Program-made: the position numbers and the translations under genes
The notes under the pieces: model-generated
The model's database searches: none
The model's input: only the letters and a program-made list of their open reading frames with translations
What the model was told of the DNA's origin: nothing
UHGV virus genome: UHGV-0103738
Direction: 5' to 3' (one strand)
Source: a virus
Length of the DNA stretch: 24,037 nucleotides
Part shown: one piece after another, positions 3,283 through 20,536 of the stretch
Layout of the letters: each line of letters opens with the position of its first letter
Position numbering within the stretch: position 1 is the stretch's first letter

Positions 3283-3573
3283 ATGTTCAAATTATCAGAA
3301 TCACAATTAAATCGAATGTTTAAAAGTGCTCCTGTATTTTCGGTGGAAGGTGGTAAATCAATTCGTGCTTATCATGAAATTACCACTACCGACGAACAAG
3401 GGGTAATTACAGAATCAGAATTTCTATTTTGTCGTGAGGGAGACTTAAATCAGGGTGATGTTGTCATTGTAGACGGTGAACGCTTCAAAGTTCAATACGT
3501 TAAGCGCAATGGTGATAATACTTCTGATTGCTTTATTGCTCGTGCAGGGGGTACACATGCTCGCTACCGTTAA
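3283..3573 (+). CDS. Hypothetical virion protein (head-tail connector or head completion candidate, 96 aa)
   Basis: SD AAAGGGGGTAA directly upstream of ATG 3283. Sits between the capsid and tail genes. No recognisable motif. Confidence 0.5.
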   Translation: MFKLSESQLNRMFKSAPVFSVEGGKSIRAYHEITTTDEQGVITESEFLFCREGDLNQGDVVIVDGERFKVQYVKRNGDNTSDCFIARAGGTHARYR

Positions 3574-3577
3574 TAAT

Positions 3578-3979
3578 ATGCCTAGACTGAAAATCAAACG
3601 CGCCTTGCAGGATATTATCGAACAAGATTTAGGTCTGGCTTTAAACGTAGAACAAACTCAGCAAGGCTTTAGTGATGACGTGGTTTGTTGGATTACCGGA
3701 ATGAATGAGACTTACAATAGGGTCCGTGGTGGTAATGCAATGCAAGCTGAATGCGTTATCGAAATGCAGTTGTATTCTCAGAATCATGAAACCAAAATTC
3801 ATGAGGGTATTTGCCAGATAATCCAGATTCAGCCGGATAATCCACGTTTTAAAGATTTGGGCTTCTCTATTTCAGATATCACTCCAGTAGCTTCTAATAC
3901 CGATTATGACGATGATTCTAGTGATGGGGGTATCGTTGGGACACTTAGCCTTAAATTTTCTTATCTAGCGCGTTTTTAA
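3578..3979 (+). CDS. Hypothetical virion protein (133 aa; start chosen at ATG 3578 rather than the track start 3476)
   Basis: Same frame as track ORF 3476..3979. ATG 3578 lies 4 nt after the upstream TAA (TAATAATATG), consistent with translational coupling. The longer version would overlap the upstream gene by ~100 nt. Confidence 0.45.
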   Translation: MPRLKIKRALQDIIEQDLGLALNVEQTQQGFSDDVVCWITGMNETYNRVRGGNAMQAECVIEMQLYSQNHETKIHEGICQIIQIQPDNPRFKDLGFSISDITPVASNTDYDDDSSDGGIVGTLSLKFSYLARF

Positions 3980-3988
3980 GGGGTAATA

Positions 3989-4822
3989 ATGAATATTACA
4001 CAAGATAACTTAGATATTTTCACGGGGTCACATGTTGAAGTGTCGATCTCTAACCAGATAGACAATCAGGTCGACTTTTTCGATCCTAGCTTTAGTTCCA
4101 TCGAGAACGTTGCAGCATTTCCTACGCTAACCGAATCCACAGAGATAGAAACTCTGGAAGAGTACGATCAGGACGCTACGGGGAAACTTGCTGGTTATCG
4201 TAGACTGGAACCGACAACACTCACGTTAAACCGTGTTCTGGATGACGAACATCAAGCAATGTTGATGAAAGCGGTAGAGGATAAAACACCTTTACGCTTC
4301 CGTATGTTCTATGTTGTGAACTCTGGCTATAGTGCTGCTAACACTGGTTACTATGTCATCTATGATGCTTACGTCACATCACACAAAACCCGTGGTAGTG
4401 ATAACAAAGCTGTAACACTGGAATTTAAACTTGAACCAGATGGCGGGATTTTGGATCGCGGTATTGCAACGGAGGGTCGTCTTCTCCGTCGCGGGGATTA
4501 TGGCGTAGGTGCAGGTGTACATCCATTCACAGGTCCGATTGATAGTGATGCTTTAGCCGGAAACCGTTTCGTAACTTACAAGGGAACTGCTAGCGGTAAT
4601 CCATATTCAGCCGACACATCATTAATTCACCTTCAAGCTAATGAGCATGGCGCATGGCAATTAACCTGTAATACTTCTGGCGCACCACGTTTACGCGTCC
4701 GAAATATTCAGGAAAACGGTCGCTCTGAATGGATCAAGGTATATTCCACCAATGAGAAACCGACACCTAGCGAAATTGGCGCAGTGGCTAAGACTGACCG
4801 GATCGATTTCGGCGAATACTAA
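3989..4822 (+). CDS. Tail-tube-like paralogue with a C-terminal domain carrying a tail-fibre motif (277 aa)
   Basis: SD AAGGGGTAA. N-terminal ~150 aa align by eye with the 157-aa tail tube protein (DIFTG..., AAFPTLTESTEIETLEEY vs AGFPETGIERGTVEVKSF, LRFRMFYVV vs IQIKVEYYV). The C-terminus has KVYSTNEKPTPSEIGAVAKTD, matching KMYHEGDKPTPGEIGAYTKAE in the fibre gene. Confidence 0.6.
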   Translation: MNITQDNLDIFTGSHVEVSISNQIDNQVDFFDPSFSSIENVAAFPTLTESTEIETLEEYDQDATGKLAGYRRLEPTTLTLNRVLDDEHQAMLMKAVEDKTPLRFRMFYVVNSGYSAANTGYYVIYDAYVTSHKTRGSDNKAVTLEFKLEPDGGILDRGIATEGRLLRRGDYGVGAGVHPFTGPIDSDALAGNRFVTYKGTASGNPYSADTSLIHLQANEHGAWQLTCNTSGAPRLRVRNIQENGRSEWIKVYSTNEKPTPSEIGAVAKTDRIDFGEY

Positions 4823-4854
4823 GGATTCTCCTACCTAAATAAAACATGAACGCT

Positions 4855-4885
4855 GGGAGGTTAACGCCTCCCTTATTCCTGTTTT
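4855..4885 (+). terminator. Terminator-like hairpin after the tube-like paralogue
   Basis: Stem GGGAGG / CCTCCC with loop TTAACG, followed by a T-rich tract (TTATTCCTGTTTTA). Confidence 0.4.
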
Positions 4886-4901
4886 ATAGTGAGGTGATTC
4901 G

Positions 4902-7900
4902 ATGCAGTCGATCCAATTTAAACGCACACAAACGGCTGGTAAAAAACCAACGCCGGAACAATTATCACAGGGCGAGATCGCCTTACAACTGGCGGACCAT
5001 GTGATTTACACCAAAGATAAAAATAATAACGTAGTCCAAATTAGTGTTTCTCCAGAAAAACACGCTGAACTGAATACGAAAGTAGACACCAACAAGGTCA
5101 ACACAGATAAAGTCATTTCAGCAAATAAAACCGAAGCCGCTAATAATCTGGCTACGGCTAAAGCTGAACTTAATCAGACTATCACTTCTACCCGTGATAC
5201 TCTCAATGCTTCAATCACTGCTGGCGATACCGCAGCCAACAAGCGAATTGATGCTTTGACTACCACAGTAGGTAACAATAAAACCGAAGCGGCTAACGCT
5301 CTGGCGGCTGCTAAGACTGAACTGAATCAGACTATTACTTCAACCCGCGATACTATCAACGCGACAATTAACAAGAACAAGACAGATATTAATGCGCGAG
5401 TTGATCAGACGAATACCAACGTTACCAACTTAACGAATACTGTCGCAGCAAATAAATCAGCAATAGAAAAGACGGTAGCGGATAATAAGAAAGATGCGGA
5501 CACGAAGATCACCAATCTTACTAGTACGGTCTCTGCGAATAAGACAGCCATTGAAAGAACTGTTGCAAATAACAAGGCCAGTGCCGATGCCGCAATTGCC
5601 GCAGCTAACCAGCGAATTGATTCTATTGAAGGTAGTGCCGATGCTGCTTACATCAAGAAGAATACCAATACTAAGCATGGTGGGTATCTGTTAAGCAAGA
5701 CAGCTAACTATTTGGAAGACCAGACAGCGAGAGATCTTAACTACTTTGGTGCTTTCCGTACCAATGGTCAAGATGGACTCATGGATCTAACTCTTAATGT
5801 TCCTCATTCTGCCGGTAAAGCGCACGGTCGCGGATTTACTTTCCGTTATGCGTCTGGTGGATCTCGTGTTGAAACCTATGGTTTTGATAGAGAAGGACAG
5901 AAGAACTTTAGCTATAAGATGTATCACGAAGGTGATAAGCCGACTCCTGGCGAGATTGGCGCATACACCAAAGCCGAAGTTGATAAGATGTTTGTTAAAA
6001 ACGTCGTTATGTCTGTTCCCAATTCTAGCGAAAACGTATCTGCATATTTCAAATTGGCAACCGCAACAATTCCACAAAACGGGCGTAGTGTGTTTTTCCG
6101 TATTCATGGTGGTAATGGTTACAACGTTACGGCATATGATCAGGTTGACGTAGTAGAAATTCTTCTGCGTAGTGGTAACGATAGACCTAAAGGTCTTAAC
6201 GTAATTGCATACCGTAGAAATACAAACAAAGATTTTGAGGTATTTGCTGTCAATACTTCCGGTGATAACTATGATATCTACGTGAAATATCAGCGTTATA
6301 CCGATAACGTTATTGTCGAATATGGGAAATCTGTTTATGTAAGTTTGACGGTTTATGATACGCCGGAAGCCACGTTAATTAAACCTTCCGTTGGTGTTAT
6401 CGGTGGTCGCAACGTAACTCTTTTTAATACTGAAAATAAACGTGGTGTGTTAAGTTTTGATGATAACACACAAAACAGCTATGACATTGTTCACTTGAGT
6501 AACGATAAAGGTACTGGACGGAAATATATTCGTAAATTCCGTAGCAACTATAACGAAATGGTTTGGCATGAAACCGTTCAGGGTGCTGTATATCGTCTTG
6601 CTACCGGTGCTACAGATTCTACAGAAGTTATTAGAATTGATTCTAATAGTGCAATACCGGGTAATTATAAAGGATATGTAATTACTGGTAAAATGGAATT
6701 GCACGGTAGTGGTAATGCGATGACTTTACATCGCCAGACTGGTCAAGCTGCATATATGGCGTGGTGGGATCGTCGTGATGGTAAAAACCAACGTAGTGGT
6801 TATATCGGTCATGCGGATGGTACTAGTGATGGTTTTGTGTGGCGTAATGATGTTGGTGCTAACTCATTTGATTTGGAAGGTAGTGGACAAGTAAATTTGA
6901 CTACAGGAAAAACAAAAATTGTATATACCAATGGTCAATATTATTCCGCTAACGCTGATGCATTCCGTATGATTTACGGTAAGTATGGTGCATTCTGGCG
7001 AAATGATGGTGGTAAAGTTTATCTGTTGTCTACTGCCGAAAATGATAGATTTGGTGGTTGGAACGGAAACCGACCATTCATTTACGATTTGACTAACGGT
7101 AAAGTTACTTTAGGTGGTGATGGTAACGAAGGCGCATTAGTTCTCGAAAGAGATAGCCGTGCTGCTCGATTTGCTGGCGATACATATATCGAGAAAGGGT
7201 TTTTAACCTTCTCTGCTGGGAGAAGCGGATCTCGTGATTATATTCGATTTAATCATTGGGGTGATAGTAATAATGCCCGTGATAACGTTTTGTACCTAGA
7301 AGATAGTCAAGGTAGACATTTTAGCACAGAGCGTGCGATGGGTACTGGTGCTCTTAAAGCAAACTTCTTAGGCGATCTTGAAGTTGGTGGTAAGTTTACT
7401 TGGGGTAAAAATACAGCTACATCCAGCTTTAATATTCGTGCTTGGGGTAACGATAGTCGTAAACAAGTATTAGAATGTGGTGATGAAAGTGGTTGGCATT
7501 GGTATACCCAACGTCCGGGCGGTCCGGGTACTACGGCAATTGAGTTTGCCATCAACGGTACTGTTAAGCCTCAAGCAATTCACACTGGCGGTAATATCAC
7601 GCTTAACGGTGCTGATATTGAATTTCGTCGCACTGGTAATAAGCATATCTGGTTTAGAGATCCAACTGGATTAGAACTAGGTTTGATGTATTCTGATGAT
7701 GCTGGTGTTATTCGCTTCCGTGGTCAGAAACAAGCCCAGACGTGGAAACTTGCGGATAAGATGATTCATCTTGAATCTGGTAGCGTCGGCGGATCTGATA
7801 AAGGTTTGATTCGTGGTAACGTTTCTGGTGGTAGCTGGTCTAGTTGGCGCGATCGTGCATCCGGCTTGCAAGTTGATTGCCCTCAATCAACCGATTCCGC

Positions 7901-8432
7901 TCATAACATCTGGAAAGCTACTCATTGGGGTAAATATCACATTGCAGCAATGGGTGTACACGTTCCTAGCGGTACTATCGGTAACGCTCTTGTTCGTCTG
8001 CATGTTAACGATACTAACTTTGACTTTAACGCTGCTGGTGACTTTACCGCAGGTCGTAACGGTAGCTTTAACGATGTTTACATTCGCTCTGACTCCCGTT
8101 TGAAGATTAACAAGGAAGAATTACAGGACGGTGCATTAGAGAAAGTAAACTCACTGAAAGTCTACACCTACGATAAAGTTAAATCTCTTTCCGATGACAC
8201 GGTGATTAAACGCGAAGTAGGTATTATTGCTCAGGATCTGGAAAAAGTATTGCCGGAAGCAGTAGGTATTCAATCCACCGAAGATCCAGAAAATCCAGAA
8301 GCAATCAAGACTATTTCTAACTCTGCTGTCAATGCTTTAATCATCAAGGCTATGCAGGAAATGGACGCCAAATATAAAGCACAGATCGAAGCATTACAGA
8401 AAGAAATTGCCGAACTGAAAGCAACTAAATAA
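4902..8432 (+). CDS. Side (L-shaped type) tail fibre with a C-terminal intramolecular chaperone / self-cleaving domain (1176 aa)
   Basis: SD GAGGTGA. N-terminal fibre-type motifs, a repeat-rich N/T/A shaft with 51-aa repeats, and a long Gly-rich beta region. The C-terminal ~114 aa begin RSDSRLKINKEE and end in a coiled coil, as in peptidase S74-type chaperone domains of phage fibres and endosialidases (Ser/Lys spacing S1063/K1068). Confidence 0.8.
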   Translation: MQSIQFKRTQTAGKKPTPEQLSQGEIALQLADHVIYTKDKNNNVVQISVSPEKHAELNTKVDTNKVNTDKVISANKTEAANNLATAKAELNQTITSTRDTLNASITAGDTAANKRIDALTTTVGNNKTEAANALAAAKTELNQTITSTRDTINATINKNKTDINARVDQTNTNVTNLTNTVAANKSAIEKTVADNKKDADTKITNLTSTVSANKTAIERTVANNKASADAAIAAANQRIDSIEGSADAAYIKKNTNTKHGGYLLSKTANYLEDQTARDLNYFGAFRTNGQDGLMDLTLNVPHSAGKAHGRGFTFRYASGGSRVETYGFDREGQKNFSYKMYHEGDKPTPGEIGAYTKAEVDKMFVKNVVMSVPNSSENVSAYFKLATATIPQNGRSVFFRIHGGNGYNVTAYDQVDVVEILLRSGNDRPKGLNVIAYRRNTNKDFEVFAVNTSGDNYDIYVKYQRYTDNVIVEYGKSVYVSLTVYDTPEATLIKPSVGVIGGRNVTLFNTENKRGVLSFDDNTQNSYDIVHLSNDKGTGRKYIRKFRSNYNEMVWHETVQGAVYRLATGATDSTEVIRIDSNSAIPGNYKGYVITGKMELHGSGNAMTLHRQTGQAAYMAWWDRRDGKNQRSGYIGHADGTSDGFVWRNDVGANSFDLEGSGQVNLTTGKTKIVYTNGQYYSANADAFRMIYGKYGAFWRNDGGKVYLLSTAENDRFGGWNGNRPFIYDLTNGKVTLGGDGNEGALVLERDSRAARFAGDTYIEKGFLTFSAGRSGSRDYIRFNHWGDSNNARDNVLYLEDSQGRHFSTERAMGTGALKANFLGDLEVGGKFTWGKNTATSSFNIRAWGNDSRKQVLECGDESGWHWYTQRPGGPGTTAIEFAINGTVKPQAIHTGGNITLNGADIEFRRTGNKHIWFRDPTGLELGLMYSDDAGVIRFRGQKQAQTWKLADKMIHLESGSVGGSDKGLIRGNVSGGSWSSWRDRASGLQVDCPQSTDSAHNIWKATHWGKYHIAAMGVHVPSGTIGNALVRLHVNDTNFDFNAAGDFTAGRNGSFNDVYIRSDSRLKINKEELQDGALEKVNSLKVYTYDKVKSLSDDTVIKREVGIIAQDLEKVLPEAVGIQSTEDPENPEAIKTISNSAVNALIIKAMQEMDAKYKAQIEALQKEIAELKATK
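5124..5429 (+). repeat. Two tandem 153-nt (51-codon) repeat units inside the fibre shaft
   Basis: AATAAAACCGAAGC(C/G)GCTAA...CTGAA(C/T)T(T/G)AATCAGACTAT(C/T)ACTTC recurs at 5124 and 5277. Protein units are NKTEAANNLATAKAELNQTITSTRDT... and NKTEAANALAAAKTELNQTITSTRDT... Confidence 0.7.
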
Positions 8433-8488
8433 TAAAAGTCGGGGGACTAGTTCCCCCGTAATAACAATTTTAATTAAGGGGTAATTCT

Positions 8489-8962
8489 ATGTCTCAGCAA
8501 TTCAAAGATATTTTTACTGGTGGTCTGGTAAGTCTGTTCTATCACGCCGATACCACTAACACCGACCTTGCCGATGAAGCATACGAAGAAATTAAAGAGT
8601 GTGCTGGTTTTCCTGAAACTGGTATCGAGCGCGGTACTGTAGAAGTTAAATCCTTCTCTTCTCAGTATAACCGTAAACTGGTAGGTAAACTGAACGTTCC
8701 TGATCTGACTCTGACCGTTAACTACATTCCTGGTGATGCGGTACATGAGAAGCTCATAAAGGCTGCCGAAGACGGTACGCGTATTCAAATCAAAGTTGAA
8801 TACTATGTTGACGCCGGAAAACAGACTGGTATTCGCACTGCTTTCAACGGCTTTATTTCTAAAGTTGCTATGAACGGTGGCGATGAAGAAGTGGTAACGA
8901 AAGAGTTTACCTTTGCTGTTGATGGTGCTCCGCTGAAACAGCAAATCTTCACTGCCGGATGA
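8489..8962 (+). CDS. Major tail tube protein (157 aa)
   Basis: SD AAGGGGTAA. Strongly biased highly-expressed codon usage. Lies upstream of the chaperone and tape-measure genes and is followed by a strong terminator. Stop is TGA at 8960-8962. Confidence 0.7.
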   Translation: MSQQFKDIFTGGLVSLFYHADTTNTDLADEAYEEIKECAGFPETGIERGTVEVKSFSSQYNRKLVGKLNVPDLTLTVNYIPGDAVHEKLIKAAEDGTRIQIKVEYYVDAGKQTGIRTAFNGFISKVAMNGGDEEVVTKEFTFAVDGAPLKQQIFTAG

Positions 8963-9085
8963 ACTAACGAAGAACTTCCTTTACCAGAACCGGAACCACT
9001 GCCGGAACATGAAGCGGTGGTGATTCCAGAAGTAGAAGAAGTTACGGCGAAAGCCACAGCAAAACGAGGCCGCAAGGCTAAGAAT
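8963..9085 (+). other. Putative in-frame TGA read-through extension of the tail tube protein (41 codons, TAA at 9086-9088)
   Basis: Open in frame after the TGA, encoding TNEELPLPEPEPLPEHEAVVIPEVEEVTAKATAKRGRKAKN. Same TGA-ACT context and same Pro/Glu-linker plus basic-tail architecture as the capsid extension. Ends 5 nt before the terminator. Confidence 0.45.
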
Positions 9086-9093
9086 TAATTTTA

Positions 9094-9121
9094 AGCCCTG
9101 CCTTAATGGTGGGGCTTTTTT
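9094..9121 (+). terminator. Rho-independent terminator after the tail tube gene
   Basis: Stem AGCCCTGCC / GGTGGGGCT, loop TTAAT, then a T-run. Same stem as the terminator at 3226-3252. Confidence 0.75.
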
Positions 9122-9136
9122 ATTGGAGTAATCAAA

Positions 9137-9643
9137 ATGGCAAATGTCGTTAAAGTTCCTGGCTGGATCGGGTCATCTGCTGTATCGGTGACGGGTAAGC
9201 GATGGATGAAAGAAGCATTAACAGCTTTAAAAGTTCCGGCTCCGCGTAATATGTCGGCAATGGCTGGTCGTGGTATGGATACGGTTGTAGCTACTGCATC
9301 GTGGTCTACTTCATTGGGTAATAACTGGGGTGTAACTGCTTCAAACTATCCTGTTTCCGGTATGCAAAGCAAAGGATCTATGGAGAACCCCGAAAACGTG
9401 GGCGTAGGGCGTCTGGTTGGCGTTATCGTTGGTCAATTCAATGGCGGTACTCCTACTATGGCTGTATATCTCCAGAACGGTAGAGCGGGGAATATAACCG
9501 TTAATTTGGGTGGTGCTGCTGTCACTGTTCCTTATAACAGTATGCAAAGTGGTTTTCATTACTATTGGTTAAGCAATCCTCCGGCTGCTTTCCTTACCAA
9601 CATTAAGAAGACTGGCACTAAGCAGACTTTGAAAATCTCTTAA
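9137..9643 (+). CDS. Hypothetical tail-associated protein (168 aa, Gly/Ser/Thr/Asn-rich)
   Basis: ORF with upstream GGAG, located between the tube gene and the chaperone genes. Composition suggests a beta-rich structural protein. No specific motif recognised. Confidence 0.45.
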   Translation: MANVVKVPGWIGSSAVSVTGKRWMKEALTALKVPAPRNMSAMAGRGMDTVVATASWSTSLGNNWGVTASNYPVSGMQSKGSMENPENVGVGRLVGVIVGQFNGGTPTMAVYLQNGRAGNITVNLGGAAVTVPYNSMQSGFHYYWLSNPPAAFLTNIKKTGTKQTLKIS

Positions 9644-10377: not shown

Positions 10378-12810
10378 ATGACAAAACATATAGTAACAAT
10401 AGAAGGGGATAATAAAGGTCTAAGGAGAAGTACCAGTGAAGCCGCCGACCTTCTCGATAGTTTGTCTGAAAAGGCAAGTGGTATTGATTTTGGTGGTGGC
10501 TTGTCTGGTTTGACTGGATCTCTTCGTGGGATCGCTGGCTCTGCTGGTTTGGCTGCTGGTGGTATCGGCTTAGTTGCGACCGCAGTGGTTGCAGCCGCTA
10601 AAGCTGGTGCGGAATACGTTAAACAGTATTCAGAAGTATCTAAGGCGACCGGACTCTCGATTGAATCCCTTCAAAGACTAGAAAAGGAATTTTCTGGTAC
10701 TGGCCTAACAGTTGAAAAATTCGGTGATATCAACAAAGACACCTTAGATAAGATGGGTGATGCATGGGCTAACGGTGGTGGTATTGCTGATGACTTAGAA
10801 TCGGTTGGTCTTAAGTTAGAAAACTATGCTCACTTCATGACAGATCCGCAAGGTGGTATGAAAGCGGCGATCCAAGTGTTCTATGACATGAAGAAAGCCG
10901 GAAAATCAATGGCTGAAATCAAGTTCATGATGGAATCTTTAGCCAGTGATTCAAGCCATATGACCAGCCAGCTTGAGAAATATAATAGTGCTCAAGAGGC
11001 GATGATCGCTATTCAGAATCAATCTGTTAACGTCACCGAAGAAAACGCTAAAAAATATGATAAATTTTCTCAGAATATTAATAAGCTGGAAAATAACCTG
11101 AAAGGCGCAGCCATGACCATTACTGGTCCTTTGGTTGATAGCTTAAACTGGTTATTTGAATGGTTTAATATTGATTGGGAAAAGAGTTCTCTATTCAGGG
11201 CATTAGATCGACTGAATAAAGAAGGCAAGACCGCAACTGGTGGTATTCTTAACGCCAACCATAAAGACGCTCAAAAGATTATTGACAAGTACAATAAAGA
11301 AAAGCGTTGGAATAATCTAGCAGATTGGGAAAAGGCCGCGATCCGTGGTGCTGGTGTCGATCCTCGTACTGCTGGCTTTGATGTTGAAGGATTTAAGAAA
11401 CGTTTTGGTGGGTCTTATAAAACTTCAAGTGGTGCTCTGATTGTCGTAGATGCAGGTGAACATCTGACACGCAAGGCAGATCCTAACACTGATTTGACTA
11501 TACCAAATAAACCAGTAAGACCAGAATCATTGGGTAAGTCTGGCAACGAGAAGAAAGCCGAGGAAGAAGCCAAAAAGAAAGCGGAAGAGGCAGCTAAAAA
11601 GGCTAAGGAAGCCGCAGAAAAAGCACAGAAAGCACGCGAGGATGCAATCAAGCGACTGAATGCACTTGATGTTAAATTGCAAGGGCAAGTTGCAGCGTCT
11701 ATCACTTCTCAAAATAGCCAGTTGCAAAACAGCTTAAAAGATGTGAACGACGCGTTAGCTCTGGGCTTAATCTCTCAGGAAGACGCAGCCGCGAAACGCC
11801 AGGCGCTAATCGATCAGAATACTGAAAACGTTTATAAAATGATGTTGGGTGCTGATCCGATTGATGCTCTGAATGCTTTAACACAATTGCAACAAATCAG
11901 GGACAACGAGCTAGAAAGCCATAAACGGTTACTTGATGGTAAAGCTATCTCCTACGAAGAATATATGCGTCGTGTGAACGATACCGAGCAAAACTATTCT
12001 CAGATTGAAAATTCTTTACAGGGAATGGATGGTTATAAAACCAATCAATTAACTAGTGGTTATGATTATCAAGACTCAAATAATCCGTTTGCTAAATTTA
12101 ATGCAATCGATAAAGAGAAATCGGATGCTGAACAAGATTATAAGACCGATAAACTCAAGATTGACGGTATTAATGATCCGGCTAAACGGATGGAAGCATT
12201 AGAAAAACTCAATGAAAACCATCAAAAACGGATGGCTGCAATTGAAAAGAAATATGCTGATGCTCGTCAGTCAATAGCTGATGATATGTACGGCGGTTTT
12301 GCTGCTGCAATGACTCTCTTCGGGCAGGAAAACACAAAAGCTATGCAGATGGCTTTCAATGCTCATAAAGCATTCTCAATTGGACAAGCGACGGTGAACA
12401 TGTGGACGGCTGCTACCGATGCATGGAACGATCCGACCAACGTAACCACAGGTCAAAAGATCGCTGCTGCTGCATTGGCTGTTTCTCAGAACATGGGGAA
12501 CATTGCAAACATCAAGTCTACTAATGTTAGCGGTATGGCTCATGATGGTATCGATAACATCCCGCGTGAGGGTACATGGTTGCTTGATAAGGGTGAACGA
12601 GTAGTTGATCAGCGTACTAACGGTGATTTGAAAGACTTCTTATCTGCTCAAAAATCAGGCGGTGGTAACTCTCAGCCGATTGAAGTTAATGCGCCTTTGA
12701 ACATTAACGGCAACGTTAATAGCTCAGACAAGATGGTTATGGATGCTATCAAACGTCACGCTAAGTTAGTTGCTCAGGCGGTAGAAGACGCACAGCGTCG
12801 TAAGATGTAA
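10378..12810 (+). CDS. Tail tape measure protein (810 aa)
   Basis: Position after the chaperone pair. N-terminal Gly-rich hydrophobic segment, long coiled-coil and Lys/Glu/Ala-rich stretches, C-terminal Gly-rich region. Confidence 0.85.
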   Translation: MTKHIVTIEGDNKGLRRSTSEAADLLDSLSEKASGIDFGGGLSGLTGSLRGIAGSAGLAAGGIGLVATAVVAAAKAGAEYVKQYSEVSKATGLSIESLQRLEKEFSGTGLTVEKFGDINKDTLDKMGDAWANGGGIADDLESVGLKLENYAHFMTDPQGGMKAAIQVFYDMKKAGKSMAEIKFMMESLASDSSHMTSQLEKYNSAQEAMIAIQNQSVNVTEENAKKYDKFSQNINKLENNLKGAAMTITGPLVDSLNWLFEWFNIDWEKSSLFRALDRLNKEGKTATGGILNANHKDAQKIIDKYNKEKRWNNLADWEKAAIRGAGVDPRTAGFDVEGFKKRFGGSYKTSSGALIVVDAGEHLTRKADPNTDLTIPNKPVRPESLGKSGNEKKAEEEAKKKAEEAAKKAKEAAEKAQKAREDAIKRLNALDVKLQGQVAASITSQNSQLQNSLKDVNDALALGLISQEDAAAKRQALIDQNTENVYKMMLGADPIDALNALTQLQQIRDNELESHKRLLDGKAISYEEYMRRVNDTEQNYSQIENSLQGMDGYKTNQLTSGYDYQDSNNPFAKFNAIDKEKSDAEQDYKTDKLKIDGINDPAKRMEALEKLNENHQKRMAAIEKKYADARQSIADDMYGGFAAAMTLFGQENTKAMQMAFNAHKAFSIGQATVNMWTAATDAWNDPTNVTTGQKIAAAALAVSQNMGNIANIKSTNVSGMAHDGIDNIPREGTWLLDKGERVVDQRTNGDLKDFLSAQKSGGGNSQPIEVNAPLNINGNVNSSDKMVMDAIKRHAKLVAQAVEDAQRRKM

Positions 12811-14120: not shown

Positions 14121-14540
14121 ATGCTAAAAACTAGGCTTATCACCGATTACATCAATTCTTTAATAGGTCAGGAGTTCGTTCAAGGCGAGAATGATTGCAA
14201 TCTCATTGCATGTAAGATCATCGATATTCTCGCTGGTACTGACCTATATAATTCTCTTTATAAAAAATATTCAACTAAAGAAGAAGGCTTGAAAATCTGC
14301 AAAGAATTAAGCGGATATTCAAACATCCTTCAACCAATTAAGAAACATTTCAAATTAGTCACTGATGATTTACAGGACGGCGACTTACTGGTCACAGCCC
14401 ACAAATTAGGAAACCGTAATTATTATTCCGTAGTTCCTCATTATTCCGGTTATGGCCTCGTTGAAGAAGATGGTATCTGGATGACCATTCCTGTTTCAGA
14501 CATTGACTATGAACAAGTTTATAGATTCGGGGGTGAATAA
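14121..14540 (+). CDS. Tail assembly protein, gpK-like with possible NlpC/P60-type Cys motif (139 aa)
   Basis: GGAGG at 14108-14112 sits 8 nt before ATG 14121. ENDCNLIAC resembles the catalytic Cys motif of NlpC/P60 domains. Located immediately upstream of the J-like gene, with a TAATG overlap at 14538-14542. Confidence 0.5.
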   Translation: MLKTRLITDYINSLIGQEFVQGENDCNLIACKIIDILAGTDLYNSLYKKYSTKEEGLKICKELSGYSNILQPIKKHFKLVTDDLQDGDLLVTAHKLGNRNYYSVVPHYSGYGLVEEDGIWMTIPVSDIDYEQVYRFGGE

Positions 14541-17500
14541 TGGGATTTGAAATATTGGTAGGCGCGGTTATTGCTGGTGCGTCTGCTGGGATGGCTGCTG
14601 CTGCAACATTTTCTGTTATGACCGCAGTCGCTATCGGTATGGCTGCTGGTGCAATGACCTTGATCGCTTCCACTGTAGGCGCACCAAAAACACCGAAAGT
14701 ACAAAGCCCAGATAATGCGGTGACACTAGGAACATCAAACGATCCGAAGACAGTATTACCCGTTCTTTTCGGTACTACCCGCACGGGTGCAATCTGCGTT
14801 TACAAAGCAATTTCTAAGCAAGAAAACAATAAGTTAGTGCAAATCTTCGCAATTGCAGAGGGTGAAATCGACCATTACAAAGCACTATTCATCGATAACA
14901 AAAATGTTCTTGTTGGTAAGAACATGACGATCCGTGATGGTGTACTGGACAAAGGCAACATTAAAGAAGAATACCGGAAAGTTTTAGAGGTTGAGTTCCG
15001 CACTGGTAAGAATCCTAACACCGCTTTGTCACTGGCAAAACGTCACTTAGGGTCAGACTGGAACGACAACTACAAAGGCAATGGTATTGCGACCATGTGT
15101 ATTGTGTTGCGTCGTGATGACAAATCTCTTGCTGCTGGTGTTGATATTCTCCAACCAAATAGCCAGGTAGCGGTAGACGTTTGCGGGTTAAAGATTCGTA
15201 ACCTTGAAACCAATGCTATTGAGGCTAGCACTAACGGCGTGGACCAGATTTTCCATTATCTGACAAATACAAAATATGGTCTTAGTGTACCAATTGAAAA
15301 CATCAACGTTGATTCATTCCTGAAAGTACGTAAGCAAGTACGCCAGATGGATTTGCATTCAAACGGTGCATGTGATCCGAACGCCAGCTTTAAAGAGAAC
15401 TTGACTAGCCTTATGCAGACTTTCGGCGGGGTGATGTTCGAATCCTTTGGACGTATTACGCTGAAACTGGATGCTCCTGATATTGTTAAGCATACCTTCA
15501 ATGAAGACAATATCATGATGGGTAAGGTATCACTGAAAACAGGTGGCACTAACGGTTATTTCAATACCATTAACGCGATGTATCAAGAACCATCAATCGA
15601 CTATTCAGAGCAAATGCTACGTTATCCGGCTGATGCTGAAAACGATGCTACTATTCGTCAAGATGGTCGAATTATCGCTAAAGATATTGAATATCGTTTT
15701 GTTAAGTCTAAAGCCCAGATTGATAAACTTGCGAGTATTGAGCGAAATAAATCTCGTATCACTCAGGTTATCAGCTTTATGACTACTGACGCATTCACTG
15801 CCGAAGTTTGGGACGTTATCAGCGTAACCTATGATGAATTGAAGCTGAATAATTCCTTATGGCGTATTACTGCAATTGATCGCTCGATTGATTCTGGTAT
15901 TGCTGGGATGATGACTATCACCGCTACAGAATATAATTCTCAGGTTTATACTGACCTGAACTATGCGGCTAACCCAGATAACCGACCAAGTGGTTTACCG
16001 GATTCAATGACAGTACAGAAGCCTACTAATTTCAGAATTAAGGCAACTGGCGAGACGATTTACGGTAAAAACGTTACTTTGACATGGGATGCACCAGAAG
16101 ATTTTAACCGCTACGGCTTCCAGATTGATTACCGTGTAAGCGGATCACCTAACTGGATTAAGTTGGGACAGACTTCACAGCAAATTTTCAGTGTCAATGC
16201 ACTGGCAAAAGATCGTTCCTACGATTACCGAGTTTGTGCTTTCGGTATCATCGCGAGATCCGATTGGGTAGAACTGATTAACCAGAATCCTACTGTTACC
16301 TATGAATTGCCGACTCCGGTTATTCGAATCAAAAATCAGGGTAGCACGCCAGGAACTTTCGAAGGTAATGATCTGATTATCGAATGGGAAAATCAGCAAC
16401 AATTAGATGTTGAGATCAACGGTGAAACTAACAAGTTTAGTGACCTGTTTGAAGCATACATTATCAAGGTGACTAACAAGGCTGGTAAGTCTATTCAGTA
16501 CCGTACCCGCGATCCTGAATCATGGACTTATACGCTTGATATGAACCAGTTTAACGGCCTTTCGCGTCAACTTACGGTAGAAGTATCAGCTAAGGGCTAT
16601 AACAACTCAGAGAGCGCCCCAGCGCGTTTAGTGGCTATCAACCCACAACATAAGCCAATGAAAGGTTTTAGTGCGCGTGGTGGCTTTAATACTGCGTTTG
16701 TTAGCTGGGCGGATGACGTAGAACATGACTATGCAGGGTCAATCATCCAGTATGCAACCGACAACACTTTCTCAGATGCAAGGGCAGTAAGTACGAATAG
16801 TGTTAGCCATACTTCCTTTGATATTGCTGACGGTGATTATTATATCCGTGGTGCTCACTACGATATTTTCGGTATGGATGATGCTGTTTGGTCTGAACCG
16901 TATTTCATGCAAATGAAGTCTACGATTAGTTGGGACGATCAGGACAAAGAAGCACTGGAAGACCTGATCGGTTTACAAGATCGCTTAGATGAAACTATCG
17001 CGGATGCTATTAAGCAAGCTGGCGCTAATGCCGATGCTAAAATTGATGCAATGCATAAGCAAATCACTACCGAGACGGGTAAAACTGTTCAAGCCTCAGC
17101 CGATACCTTAAAGAGTCTGATTGCTTCTGGTGATAAGGCAAGTTCAACTAAGATTGATCAGGTTAAAGCTGAACTGAAAGGCGATATCACCAAAGAAGTT
17201 AGCGCCTCCGCTACAACCCTGAAACAAGCAATTGCAACCAGTGAGGCAGCAAGCGCAAGTAAGATTGATCAAGTTCGGGTAGAAATGGATGGCAAGATTG
17301 CTGGTGTGAATCAGGAAGCAGATGTAAAAATCGATGCTTTGAAAGGAACCATTAACAGCAAATACAATCTGGCGGTTAATGCAGATGGTCGCGTGGCTGG
17401 TATTCATATGAGCGCAACCAATGATCCGGCAGAACCGACAAGAATCATCTTTACGGCTGATAAAATCGCGGTAGCTCCACAGAATGGATCGGGGGTATGT

Positions 17501-18316
17501 CCGTTTGGTATCGAAGGTAACAAGGTTTATCTCGATAATGCGATGATTCGTAATGCTGCAATTGGTACAGCCCAGATTAATGATGCGGCGATTACTACTG
17601 CCAAGATCGGCAATGCCGCAATTAACAGCGCGAAGATTCAGGACGGGGCAATCACTAACGCCAAGATCGTAAACGGTGCAATTGATAACGCCAAAATTGG
17701 TAACTATATCCAGTCTTCCAACTGGAACGGATCAACCGGATGGCATATCAACAAGAACGGGTCCGCTACGTTCATGAACGCTACCGTTAAAGGTAATATC
17801 ACGGCTGATTCTGGTACTCTGAACAACGTCACGATTAACTCTAGCTGTGTTATTAAGGGTATGCTTGAAGCTACTCAGGTTAAGGGTGATTTCGTTAAGG
17901 TGATTGGTCGTAAGTTCCCACACCGTGATGTTAACGTTGATAATGGTTATGGCGGCTATCCGCAAGGTACAGTAACCGTTCGCGTTGAAGATGATCACAA
18001 GTTCGATCGTCAAATCGTTATTCCGGCGATTAGTTTTGGTGGATTGCGAGCGCGTGAAGGGTCGAACAATAATACCTATTACGACACCTGTCGCCTGATT
18101 GTTCGTAAGAATGGGTCAGAGTTGTATAATAGGGCGTATGGCGGTAATACTGGTCTTTACTCAGGTGTTATTGATATGCCAGCGGGTAAAGGTGCTGTGA
18201 CCTTGACCTTTGAAGTGCAATCAAGCGCAATCAACAACTGGACGCCTAGCACATGGATCAGTGATTTAACTGTAATGGTAACTAAAAAAGCCACTACGGG
18301 TATTACTGTTTCTTAA
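14540..18316 (+). CDS. Central tail fibre / tip attachment protein, lambda gpJ-like, with an N-terminal gpI-like hydrophobic domain (1258 aa)
   Basis: C-terminal ~150 aa resemble the remembered lambda J C-terminus (TLNNVTINSSC..., VEDDHKFDRQIVIP, VIDMPAGKGAVTLTF, DLTVMVTKK). Fibronectin III-like segment around 16000-16300. N-terminal Ala/Gly-rich hydrophobic region followed by APKTPKVQ...VLPVLFG, resembling the lambda gpI C-terminus. Confidence 0.85.
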   Translation: MGFEILVGAVIAGASAGMAAAATFSVMTAVAIGMAAGAMTLIASTVGAPKTPKVQSPDNAVTLGTSNDPKTVLPVLFGTTRTGAICVYKAISKQENNKLVQIFAIAEGEIDHYKALFIDNKNVLVGKNMTIRDGVLDKGNIKEEYRKVLEVEFRTGKNPNTALSLAKRHLGSDWNDNYKGNGIATMCIVLRRDDKSLAAGVDILQPNSQVAVDVCGLKIRNLETNAIEASTNGVDQIFHYLTNTKYGLSVPIENINVDSFLKVRKQVRQMDLHSNGACDPNASFKENLTSLMQTFGGVMFESFGRITLKLDAPDIVKHTFNEDNIMMGKVSLKTGGTNGYFNTINAMYQEPSIDYSEQMLRYPADAENDATIRQDGRIIAKDIEYRFVKSKAQIDKLASIERNKSRITQVISFMTTDAFTAEVWDVISVTYDELKLNNSLWRITAIDRSIDSGIAGMMTITATEYNSQVYTDLNYAANPDNRPSGLPDSMTVQKPTNFRIKATGETIYGKNVTLTWDAPEDFNRYGFQIDYRVSGSPNWIKLGQTSQQIFSVNALAKDRSYDYRVCAFGIIARSDWVELINQNPTVTYELPTPVIRIKNQGSTPGTFEGNDLIIEWENQQQLDVEINGETNKFSDLFEAYIIKVTNKAGKSIQYRTRDPESWTYTLDMNQFNGLSRQLTVEVSAKGYNNSESAPARLVAINPQHKPMKGFSARGGFNTAFVSWADDVEHDYAGSIIQYATDNTFSDARAVSTNSVSHTSFDIADGDYYIRGAHYDIFGMDDAVWSEPYFMQMKSTISWDDQDKEALEDLIGLQDRLDETIADAIKQAGANADAKIDAMHKQITTETGKTVQASADTLKSLIASGDKASSTKIDQVKAELKGDITKEVSASATTLKQAIATSEAASASKIDQVRVEMDGKIAGVNQEADVKIDALKGTINSKYNLAVNADGRVAGIHMSATNDPAEPTRIIFTADKIAVAPQNGSGVCPFGIEGNKVYLDNAMIRNAAIGTAQINDAAITTAKIGNAAINSAKIQDGAITNAKIVNGAIDNAKIGNYIQSSNWNGSTGWHINKNGSATFMNATVKGNITADSGTLNNVTINSSCVIKGMLEATQVKGDFVKVIGRKFPHRDVNVDNGYGGYPQGTVTVRVEDDHKFDRQIVIPAISFGGLRAREGSNNNTYYDTCRLIVRKNGSELYNRAYGGNTGLYSGVIDMPAGKGAVTLTFEVQSSAINNWTPSTWISDLTVMVTKKATTGITVS

Positions 18317-18334: not shown

Positions 18335-18375
18335 TAATCCCGCTTAATTCTTTTGAGTTAGGCGGGATTATTTTT
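18335..18375 (+). terminator. Terminator after the tail-tip gene
   Basis: Stem TAATCCCGC / GCGGGATTA (9 bp) with a long loop, followed by TTTTT. Confidence 0.6.
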
Positions 18376-18420: not shown

Positions 18421-18699
18421 ATGACTGAAATTATATATGGCGGTATCGGTGTTATCGCCTTAATTTGCGGTGGTCTTTGGAGACTTCACCGAAATCAATT
18501 AGCAACTGAAAATAGATTGTCGAAATTGGAATCCAGCGACGCATTGTTAAACCAGAAGTTTGAGACGATGCAGAATAACCATACTCAGATTGCTGAACGT
18601 GTTTACCAAATGGAACAAACACTACACGGTATAGAGAAGAAAGTGGTTGCGATGGACGCCAAATTTGACCAAGTTCTCGACATACTCAAACAAAAATAA
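18421..18699 (+). CDS. Membrane-anchored coiled-coil protein (92 aa; holin/lysis-regulator or exclusion candidate)
   Basis: SD-like CGGGGGCGTA before the ATG. One N-terminal transmembrane segment (IIYGGIGVIALICGGLW) followed by RLHR and a coiled-coil tail. Confidence 0.5.
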   Translation: MTEIIYGGIGVIALICGGLWRLHRNQLATENRLSKLESSDALLNQKFETMQNNHTQIAERVYQMEQTLHGIEKKVVAMDAKFDQVLDILKQK

Positions 18700-18717
18700 T
18701 AATAAAGGGGTGAATAT

Positions 18718-18888
18718 ATGAAGAATAAACTTAAGAAATATTTTGGTTATCTCTTGATTATCGCCCTCACTTATAACGTAGCAATTAGACCTCTGCTTAC
18801 GTCCTTTGGGCTTGAACTCCCGGCTATGGCCGTGGATGAACAATTGCTAAGGACACTGGCGGGGGTCTTTTCGTTATTAGGGGGCTAA
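18718..18888 (+). CDS. Small membrane protein (56 aa), not in the supplied ORF track
   Basis: SD AAAGGGGTGAA 8 nt before ATG 18718. Sequence MKNKLKKYFGYLLIIALTYNVAIRPLL... has a basic N-terminus and one transmembrane helix. The stop sits 1 nt before the next gene's ATG. Confidence 0.35.
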   Translation: MKNKLKKYFGYLLIIALTYNVAIRPLLTSFGLELPAMAVDEQLLRTLAGVFSLLGG

Positions 18889-18889
18889 C

Positions 18890-19573
18890 ATGGCAACCAG
18901 TACCAATAAACGAAACGCTCTAAGGACTAAGAAAGCGTTACGGCAATGGTCTGAAAAGGCAACCGATACATTCGAAAGGGCGATAGGGGAAGGGGCGATC
19001 TTTGCTGCTCGTGCACTACAGAAGAAGATTAACAAGAATGTTGATAGACCTACTCGCTGGACTCAGCAAGCTGTAGGTAATACCAACTACAAGAACCGAT
19101 CAGGGACCAGACACCAAATCTTCATCAAGGGCGCAAGGGATAAGGACAAGAAGATCGGCAGTCAGGATGACTATCTGAAACACTATTTCGATGGCGGCAA
19201 AATCAATAAGCTAGTGCCAATCGCCAACGGTAAGGTCTTAGACTCCCACGGGAACATTAAGGCCATCAAAGGCGGTAAGATGATGCGTAACATCGAAAAC
19301 GGCAACTTCATCAAGGTAGAGAACAAGGAAGGGACTTTTATCATGAAGAAGTACAAGCCTAAGAAATCCCGAACCAAACGCGCTAAGAATGGATCGGCGG
19401 TGGCAAAACGTCGCTTAGAGAAACGCATCCAGAAACAGAGTAAGCGAATTGTTGCCGTTAAGTCGGATAAAATTTCTACTCGTTATTCGACGCTAGGATC
19501 GTGGGAAAGCAACGAGGAAATGATGCTTAAGAACATTAATAAGCACATTAAATCGCGCATGAGATACGTTTAA
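18890..19573 (+). CDS. Highly basic Lys/Arg-rich protein (227 aa), function unknown
   Basis: ORF tightly coupled to the upstream small gene. Very high K/R content throughout, with no transmembrane segment. Confidence 0.5.
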   Translation: MATSTNKRNALRTKKALRQWSEKATDTFERAIGEGAIFAARALQKKINKNVDRPTRWTQQAVGNTNYKNRSGTRHQIFIKGARDKDKKIGSQDDYLKHYFDGGKINKLVPIANGKVLDSHGNIKAIKGGKMMRNIENGNFIKVENKEGTFIMKKYKPKKSRTKRAKNGSAVAKRRLEKRIQKQSKRIVAVKSDKISTRYSTLGSWESNEEMMLKNINKHIKSRMRYV

Positions 19574-19611: not shown

Positions 19612-19959
19612 ATGGCTAAAAATATTTTCACTGAATTTCCTACTTATCCGGTCGATCAGCTTTCCGGTATTTTTATTAATGGCATTAGCCCAGAATCAAT
19701 GACCTATGATTTTGAGGCGAAGAGAGTTAAACATAAACAATATAAAGAATGTATCCGCGATCATGAAAAAGGGACCGTGTTTTGTGTCGCTACATTGGCT
19801 AAACGTCCTAAATATCGTTTTCGTGTAGGGCAAGAAGTTGATGTGGTTAATCCTTATAGCTTTAACTGTCTGGGCGATGCACGCGCGGTGTGTGTAGGTA
19901 CTGCTCCTTATTACATCAAGGGTATGCGCTTTATTGGTTATATCTTCGAAATGATCTAA
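19612..19959 (+). CDS. Hypothetical protein (115 aa, Cys-containing)
   Basis: SD TGGGGGTATAA before ATG 19612. No recognised motif. Confidence 0.5.
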   Translation: MAKNIFTEFPTYPVDQLSGIFINGISPESMTYDFEAKRVKHKQYKECIRDHEKGTVFCVATLAKRPKYRFRVGQEVDVVNPYSFNCLGDARAVCVGTAPYYIKGMRFIGYIFEMI

Positions 19960-19968
19960 GGGGGTAAT

Positions 19969-20322
19969 ATGTTAAGCAAACATTTTTCTCGCAAGGAATT
20001 TAAATGTAAATGTGGAAAATGTGATTATGATACAATCGACGCTGAATTACTGGTAATTCTTGAGGATGTACGAGAGCACTTCGGGAAGCCAGTAATTATT
20101 AACAGTGGGAACCGTTGTCCGACTCATAATAAGAATGTTGGCGGCGCAACCAATAGCTATCATGTTCGAGGCCGTGCGGCTGACATTGTTATCAAGGGTG
20201 TCTCGCCTGATATTGTTCATGCTTATCTTGATGGGAAATATCCTACTCAATACGGCTTAGGAAAATATAAAACCTTTACGCATATTGATTCCAGATCAAA
20301 AAAATCACGGTGGAATGGATAA
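19969..20322 (+). CDS. Peptidase M15-family zinc peptidase, probable endolysin (117 aa)
   Basis: SD AAGGGGGTAA. Motifs SYHVRGRAADI and FTHID match the His/Asp zinc-binding signature of M15-type cell-wall peptidases. No signal peptide. Confidence 0.65.
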   Translation: MLSKHFSRKEFKCKCGKCDYDTIDAELLVILEDVREHFGKPVIINSGNRCPTHNKNVGGATNSYHVRGRAADIVIKGVSPDIVHAYLDGKYPTQYGLGKYKTFTHIDSRSKKSRWNG

Positions 20323-20328
20323 AACAAA

Positions 20329-20352
20329 AGCGCCTCTGGTGGGCGCTTTTTT
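20329..20352 (+). terminator. Rho-independent terminator ending the + strand late operon
   Basis: Stem AGCGCC / GGCGCT, loop TCTGGTG, followed by TTTTTT, starting 7 nt after the lysin stop. Confidence 0.7.
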
Positions 20353-20536
20353 GTTAGAATATGCTGGCGACGTTAGCTATATTTCTGACCATTTTTTCAT
20401 TATAGACAAATATACCGCAGACGATAAAGTCGTTTTTGACGAAGTAGATCCGTCTCTGGTTGAAGTAATGAAAGAACCGGAAGACCTAGAGCTTGATTTA
20501 AGCCAATTATAGACTCTCTAACGCAATTAAATTAAA

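Follow-up and report, generated by a model that had tools for sequence, protein, structure and literature searches.

A strongly basic protein encoded in the lysis cassette is the probable tail completion protein of an Escherichia coli siphovirus prophage

The window analysed here, the whole 24,037-nucleotide stretch of virus genome UHGV-0103738, represents the late part of a siphovirus prophage, and almost identical DNA is found in 57 complete E. coli genomes. Its genes run from the portal through a fused protease-capsid protein, an FII-like protein, a U-like protein, the tail tube genes, a T4-like fibre module and the G/T chaperones to the tape measure, distal tail, hub and J-like tip proteins; a lysis cassette follows and, on the opposite strand, a serine integrase. 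Within the cassette lies an ORF at 18890-19573 (here and below, features are on the plus strand unless stated otherwise) that starts with ATG, ends with TAA and is annotated in E. coli strain H2 as encoding a hypothetical protein. What is a product of 227 residues, extraordinarily rich in lysine and arginine, doing among lysis genes? The earlier note, made from the letters alone, took it for a nucleic-acid-binding protein that is packaged or injected, or for a late regulator. We suggest that it most likely serves the prophage as tail completion protein (TCP) and belongs, as a divergent representative, to the 'Ne1' superfamily of lambda gpZ, HK97 gp10, SPP1 gp16.1 and 80alpha gp51, and there to the lineage of PHROG 1924. 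The identity draws on fold and profile evidence, and the mechanism that we propose on analogy with 80alpha and SPP1.

In strain H2 (NZ_CP028733.1, about 2523565-2559160), the prophage is only about 35 kb long, splits hicB and carries genes for a large serine recombinase, a Rha-family regulator and an LprI-family protein; the annotation shows no small terminase beside the GpA-type terL and no recognisable replication genes. In the region 3989-9643, side-fibre genes sit in an unusual place for a siphovirus, as a T4-type module between two tail-tube-like genes, of 277 aa (3989-4822) and 157 aa (8489-8962), with a gp37-like distal fibre of 1176 aa (4902-8432) and a gp38-like adhesin (9137-9643, PF21721 at 3.9e-15).

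The basic-protein ORF is a real gene under purifying selection: it is kept at full length in homologues from E. coli and Salmonella prophages, and comparison with these, at 57-97% identity, gives a dN/dS of 0.06-0.14. Its GC content of 45% is similar to that of the neighbouring genes. A Shine-Dalgarno-like AGGGGG (18879-18884), read directly from the sequence, stands 5 nt before the ATG, and the upstream 56-aa ORF has its stop at 18888 with the ATG following 1 nt later, an arrangement that suggests translational coupling of the two. The product is as extreme as the earlier note had described it. Lysines (37) and arginines (20) make up 25.1% of the residues and Asp and Glu together 8.4%, with a pI of 10.71, a net charge of +38 and a GRAVY of -1.03; among the 25 ORFs in the window, it is far ahead in charge, the runner-up having a net charge of +11. 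The claim that basic residues are spread through the whole chain was likewise correct, every block of 20 residues containing between two and nine of them. The peptide quoted as an example in that note is residues 153-186 (19346-19447), where 17 of the 34 residues are Lys or Arg, and the net charge of the protein without it is still +22. Neither a membrane segment nor a signal peptide was found in a Kyte-Doolittle analysis (the highest 19-residue mean is 0.44), in agreement with what had been said about membrane segments.

The E. coli and Salmonella relatives keep the order J - 92 aa - 56 aa - basic protein - 115 aa - M15 endolysin. The two small membrane-protein genes occupy 18421-18699 and 18718-18888 and the endolysin gene 19969-20322. 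The lysis cassette (18421-18888 and 20315-20512) is atypical in its own right: the 92-aa protein combines one N-terminal membrane segment with a coiled coil and has a weak Rz-like i-spanin match (E 0.036), the 56-aa membrane protein is a holin candidate, an acidic 65-aa ORF (20315-20512) overlaps the end of the endolysin gene, and the cassette shows no gene for an o-spanin lipoprotein. On the minus strand, terminator-like hairpins are present at 20558-20537 and 20350-20326, where the late operon and the integrase-side genes converge, the second of them falling within the end of the endolysin gene and the acidic ORF. Directly downstream of the basic-protein gene, the 115-aa ORF (19612-19959) is always present in the E. 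coli and Salmonella relatives; it has no match in Pfam, PHROG or NCBIfam, and its product may work together with the completion protein.

PQ671644 likewise has a J-like gene with a homologue of the basic protein behind it, and the ORF after that is 31% identical (E 1.8e-7) to our 115-aa ORF. A tblastn search of the phage collection gave no sign of this homologue, probably owing to the low-complexity filter. The entry (PQ671644.1, 'Escherichia phage DCP80') is 141 kb long and classified as a T4-like Gaprivervirus; its segment 18679-24457 encodes a J-like siphovirus tip protein, 40% identical over 1106 aa to that of window positions 14540-18316, together with the completion-protein homologue, in the vicinity of the endonuclease VII and motA genes. 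Either the genome is a mosaic or its assembly is a chimera.

Immediately past the tail tip gene and ahead of the cassette stands an intrinsic terminator (18335-18370) with a 16-bp stem, a 4-nt loop and a T-run. Its fold is significantly stable (z-score -4.65), and the element is kept in the E. coli and Salmonella relatives, with one compensatory A>C / T>G pair change in Salmonella. No sigma-70-like promoter was found between the terminator and the cassette, and expression of the lysis and completion-protein genes may depend on read-through or antitermination. The gene had been assigned to a late operon and said to be co-transcribed with virion and lysis genes. It does share the strand of the virion genes and lies in close array with the lysis genes; since the terminator splits the cassette from the tail genes, its transcription together with the virion genes is no more than plausible.

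With the protein itself as query, Pfam and NCBIfam gave no match, and PDB sequence searches with its profiles (A1, A2 and A4) gave no useful one; an OXA beta-lactamase and adenovirus pre-protein VI came up in the PDB search at E values of about 0.1 and were judged to be chance hits. The protein does match PHROG 1924, 'minor tail protein', over residues 30-181 (E 0.0017), as do ten of the 14 family members. The immediate subfamily is rare, given that just 12 proteins turned up when 1.84 billion representatives were searched exhaustively in HMMER with a profile of close homologues. Several of these are relatives of 180-230 aa with the motifs DRPTxFT, Q..YL, YGNI and KR.VA.K, and one (P0017) matches PHROG 1924 over its full length (2.4e-33) and PHROG 27, 'tail completion or Neck1', at 0.0055, and further touches PHROG 4688 (minor tail protein) and PF06763 Minor_tail_Z. 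The most conserved motif of the family reads DRPTRWT in our protein (residues 52-58, 19043-19063; consensus D-R-P-T-x-F-T), with P54, T55 and T58 invariant or almost so in alignments A2-A4. A search seeded with a mixed alignment returned 351 proteins, and PF06763 was the sole recurrent Pfam family, matched by 23 of the 127 sampled members of the combined alignment with a best E of 2e-6.

The earlier note had proposed a remote homology search, and profile comparison duly supplied the link: in hhalign, the subfamily of the basic protein aligns with the PHROG-1924-like family at a probability of 98.8% (E 1.2e-16), and HMM scores between the two are 42-49 bits. At the profile level, then, the protein is clearly homologous to PHROG 1924, with a match across the protein and shared motifs. 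The step to lambda gpZ is longer. The wider PHROG-1924-like family aligns with an alignment of eight lambda gpZ sequences over the N-terminal 71 columns (hhalign probability 64%, E 6.4e-5), and lambda gpZ reaches 18 bits against the family HMM. Set directly against gpZ, either the single sequence or the eight-sequence alignment, the subfamily gave nothing in hhalign, and the basic protein has no match to PF06763, PF04883 (HK97 gp10) or PHROG 27; the sequence link from it to gpZ is thus real but transitive, running via the wider family only, and we consider it moderate in strength.

Structure prediction depended on the depth of the alignment. With seven close homologues, AF2 reached a pLDDT of 44 and the model was unusable; an alignment of 127 sequences, dominated by distant relatives, raised this to 78.3 with a pTM of 0.64. 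The resulting model begins with an alpha-helix of 44 residues (7-50, 18908-19039; pLDDT 84-95 over 11-50), the hallmark first element of the TCP fold and the very region of the alignment between the PHROG-1924-like and lambda gpZ families. It ends with an alpha-helix of 22 residues (205-226, 19502-19567; pLDDT 85-93), another element of that fold, preceded by two strands. In between, the model has an ill-defined loop at 111-139, then a second hairpin, and two short basic helices at 159-167 and 170-182 (pLDDT 78-86); confidence is low over residues 81-140 (pLDDT about 58-66). The features of the TCP fold, a long N-terminal helix, a beta-hairpin with an extended loop and a C-terminal helix, are all present in the model, which matches the neck-lumen TCP of 80alpha, gp51 (PDB 9mu2 chain P), at 8% sequence identity. 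Foldseek against the PDB gave no significant match; against BFVD, it listed three unnamed viral proteins at TM 0.5-0.67 and then several named HK97-gp10 putative tail component. A sequence search for lambda gpZ in the PDB was negative, and there is no solved gpZ structure. The Lys/Arg-rich stretch at 153-186, delimited by alignment A2, the AF2 model and the charge count, is gapped in most members outside the E. coli/Salmonella group in that alignment and is short or absent in most distant relatives; by this comparison, it is a variable basic loop that has been enlarged in this lineage specifically.

If the protein is the completion protein, its gene is in an unusual place. The lambda order is FII-Z-U-V. 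In the window, the gene for the FII-like head-tail joining protein (3283-3573; PF05354 Phage_attach, E 2.4e-5, its 25.3 bits just missing the cut-off of 26 bits) overlaps that of the gpU-like tail terminator (3557-3979; a PGAP gene call with 28% identity over 94 aa to lambda gpU in BLASTP, E 5e-5) by 17 nt, and the Z slot is therefore empty. Instead of lying directly upstream of the tail terminator and tube genes, as TCP genes of siphoviruses usually do, the candidate gene follows the tail tip gene in the lysis cassette. It is the single candidate that accompanies the genes for tail terminator, tube, chaperones and tape measure, the family HMMs picking out no second ORF, either in the window or elsewhere in the prophage. 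The neck module is minimal in another respect, too: no adaptor gene is present between the capsid and FII-like genes. In H2, a 164-aa ORF lies between terL and portal, at the position of lambda W; its homologue in a distant relative has 159 aa (E 2e-5).

The displacement is shared with the relatives. In four of the more distant relatives examined, a terS-like gene and GpA-type terL come directly after the homologue or with one ORF in between; in another, the homologue precedes an HNH endonuclease gene at the contig end, and in Rhodobacter phage RcCronus, it is at the right genome end, adjoining cos. On the P0058 contig, the genes run in the complete order known from lambda, terL - W-like - portal - protease/capsid - cement - 101 aa - tail terminator - tube - G/T - tape measure, with the Z slot empty here as well and the homologue upstream of terS. 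Every relative with an informative neighbourhood has the gene at the lysis/terminase junction. As the gene is elsewhere and the Z slot empty in relatives also, these gene orders indicate that the relocation out of the neck module is old and clade-wide, presence elsewhere going with absence from the neck. The clade is characterised by a lambda-type GpA terminase and a lambda-type portal (Phage_portal_2), and, in the prophage and in one relative or more, by the fused protease-capsid gene. Siphovirus TCPs have been recognised by a gene position upstream of the tail terminator, one that the myoviruses P2 and Mu were already known to lack (PMC11099176); we regard it as a rule of thumb for recognition and not as a functional requirement.

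How such a protein might work is best seen from the neck of 80alpha/SaPI1. There, the lumen holds a single TCP, which builds a five-stranded sheet and a helical bundle jointly with the N-termini of three tape measure chains, and the TCP caps the last base pair of the DNA with its positive face toward it (10.1101/2024.12.10.627806). By analogy, one or a few copies of our protein would bind the head-proximal end of the completed tail and be placed in the lumen formed by the gpU-like terminator, its predicted structural neighbour, and the FII-like ring. Its long N- and C-terminal helices and the beta-hairpin would pack on the ends of three chains of the tape measure protein (10378-12810; PHROG 13674, E 2.4e-64), which the 80alpha structure makes the predicted binding partner. 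The strongly positive loop face, enlarged by the insert 153-186, would contact the end of the packaged cos-type DNA; the insert itself probably adds contacts, either with the cos DNA end or with a negatively charged tube lumen. The protein would then help the joining of head and tail and keep the DNA end ready, and at infection, it would exit with the tape measure, the DNA thereby being routed into the cell. Its presence in virions and its DNA binding are what we infer from the known systems.

The same fold could also serve elsewhere, either as a monomer at the tail tip, the site proposed for T5 p143, or in an assembly factor absent from the virion. The gene directly follows that of the tail tip, and the tail has T5-like elements in a distal tail protein with a pb9 B-domain and a tube of lambda/T5 type; T5 moreover demonstrates that a protein called TCP can sit away from the neck, p143 being located at the side of the tail tip (PMC11784142). 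Against this, the basic protein has no similarity to p143 (BLASTP E 0.24, no HMM match, hhalign probability at most 1.5%), the T5 authors themselves state that the predicted fold of p143 is unlike other TCPs (PMC11784142), and our model matches the neck-lumen protein of 80alpha instead; we think a site outside the neck unlikely. We are equally doubtful of a different assembly logic, in which the gene would be expressed on a separate schedule and the protein would enter on or along with the cos DNA end, coming from the side of the head or of packaging and making use of its enlarged insert. Lambda gpZ, in comparison, is described as the last addition on the tail side.

The neighbours of the homologues, the terminase genes in four relatives, an HNH endonuclease gene in another and the cos end in RcCronus, would also suit an accessory factor of DNA packaging or of the cos end, working with the terminase and not forming part of the tail, and so would the strong basicity of the protein and the prophage terL with no terS annotated beside it. 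The fold and profile matches are nevertheless to tail completion proteins and not to small terminases or HNH proteins; the relatives carry a separate terS-like gene (DUF1441) adjacent to the homologue, and a long distance separates the gene from terL in the E. coli/Salmonella lineage. Affinity for a DNA end, finally, does not set a packaging factor apart, as lambda gpZ, a tail protein, has itself been proposed to bind one (10.1101/2024.12.10.627806). A packaging role thus seems to us decidedly improbable.

Charge was the feature that first drew attention to this protein, and it turns out to be a trait of the family. Lambda gpZ has a pI of 12.0, 24% Lys and Arg and a net charge of +37, against +38 for the basic protein, and 118 members of the wider family have a median pI of 10.9 and a median net charge of +31. 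Judged by these compositions, extreme basicity is a normal property of gpZ-type completion proteins and not the mark of a free DNA-binding regulator. The abundance of Lys and Arg and a position after the terminator, which in principle could suit an antiterminator or late activator, are what a DNA- or RNA-binding late regulator or nucleoid-type protein has in its favour; Pfam, NCBIfam, PHROGs and the structure matches contain no helix-turn-helix, zinc-finger, HU-like or other nucleic-acid-binding domain and the first three no regulator match, the fold matches a structural protein, and the gene is located where the late region ends, after the genes that such a regulator would control. We accordingly regard the late regulator of the earlier note as very unlikely. 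A role in lysis, for instance as a regulator of the holin or as a spanin-like factor, suggested by a place amid small membrane-protein genes and the M15 endolysin gene, is scarcely credible for a chain with neither membrane segment nor signal peptide, whose homologues are in some cases remote from lysis genes and whose homology is toward tail proteins.

Some observations do count against the identification as a tail completion protein: the gene is outside the siphovirus TCP position, the Foldseek search of the PDB was negative, and direct searches of Pfam, NCBIfam and PDB sequences gave no match. Furthermore, no member of the family is known from virions; the label 'minor tail protein' of RcCronus gp44 has no experimental support in PMC8601537. 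On balance, the most likely situation is that the basic protein is a rather ordinary virion part of a known superfamily, with an unusual gene position and a lineage-specific basic insert. The packaged or injected nucleic-acid binder envisaged in the earlier note was roughly right, being near to the role that fold and profile evidence suggests; the note missed the gpZ-type homology, the basicity of the family and the terminator ahead of the cassette.

The analysis offers a probable function for a protein found in dozens of E. coli and Salmonella prophages and hypothetical according to RefSeq, and it carries a warning for methods that find neck proteins by gene order, which would score such phages as having no completion protein. 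To our knowledge, understanding of TCPs is still poor: a single structure has been solved, and lambda gpZ has never been located. An E. coli TCP with a large basic insert could serve as a convenient system for studying how the neck holds the DNA end.

Among the known systems, gp51 of Staphylococcus phage 80alpha, which belongs to the HK97 gp10 family, is the only TCP with a solved structure (10.1101/2024.12.10.627806); gp51 is shorter, about 115 aa against 227 aa, the basic protein having extra strands and the Lys/Arg-rich helical insert, the gp51 gene is in the canonical neck position, unlike that of the basic protein, and 80alpha packages by the headful mechanism, whereas the prophage has a GpA terminase of cos type. 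SPP1 gp16.1, functionally the best-studied TCP, aids the joining of tail to head and is needed for routing the DNA to the cytoplasm (PMC11099176). It is our functional model, differing in its 141 aa, its Gram-positive host and its canonical gene position. T5 p143, annotated as TCP/Neck1, resembles the basic protein in size and basicity (255 aa, pI 9.9) and in coming from an E. coli siphovirus with related tail parts, and differs in sequence and profile, in its location at the tail tip and in its predicted fold (PMC11784142). Lambda and the prophage are both E. coli siphoviruses with a GpA terminase and homologues of FII, U, V, G/T and H, and gpZ (PF06763), of 192 aa, is near the basic protein in length and charge and differs in being encoded between FII and U and not in a lysis cassette. 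Lambda particles lacking gpZ are about 500-fold less infectious, and the protein has been proposed to bind a specific DNA end (10.1101/2024.12.10.627806). PHROG 1924, exemplified by RcCronus gp44, has the motifs DRPTxFT, Q..YL and YGNI in common with the basic protein at 17-25% identity, and its gene in RcCronus is likewise outside the neck module, at the right end by cos and the terminase. From that lineage, the E. coli/Salmonella subfamily is set apart by basic inserts of its own, at residues 80-91 and 153-186, and by the position of its gene, after the tail tip gene and by the endolysin gene where the PHROG 1924 relatives have theirs before terS.
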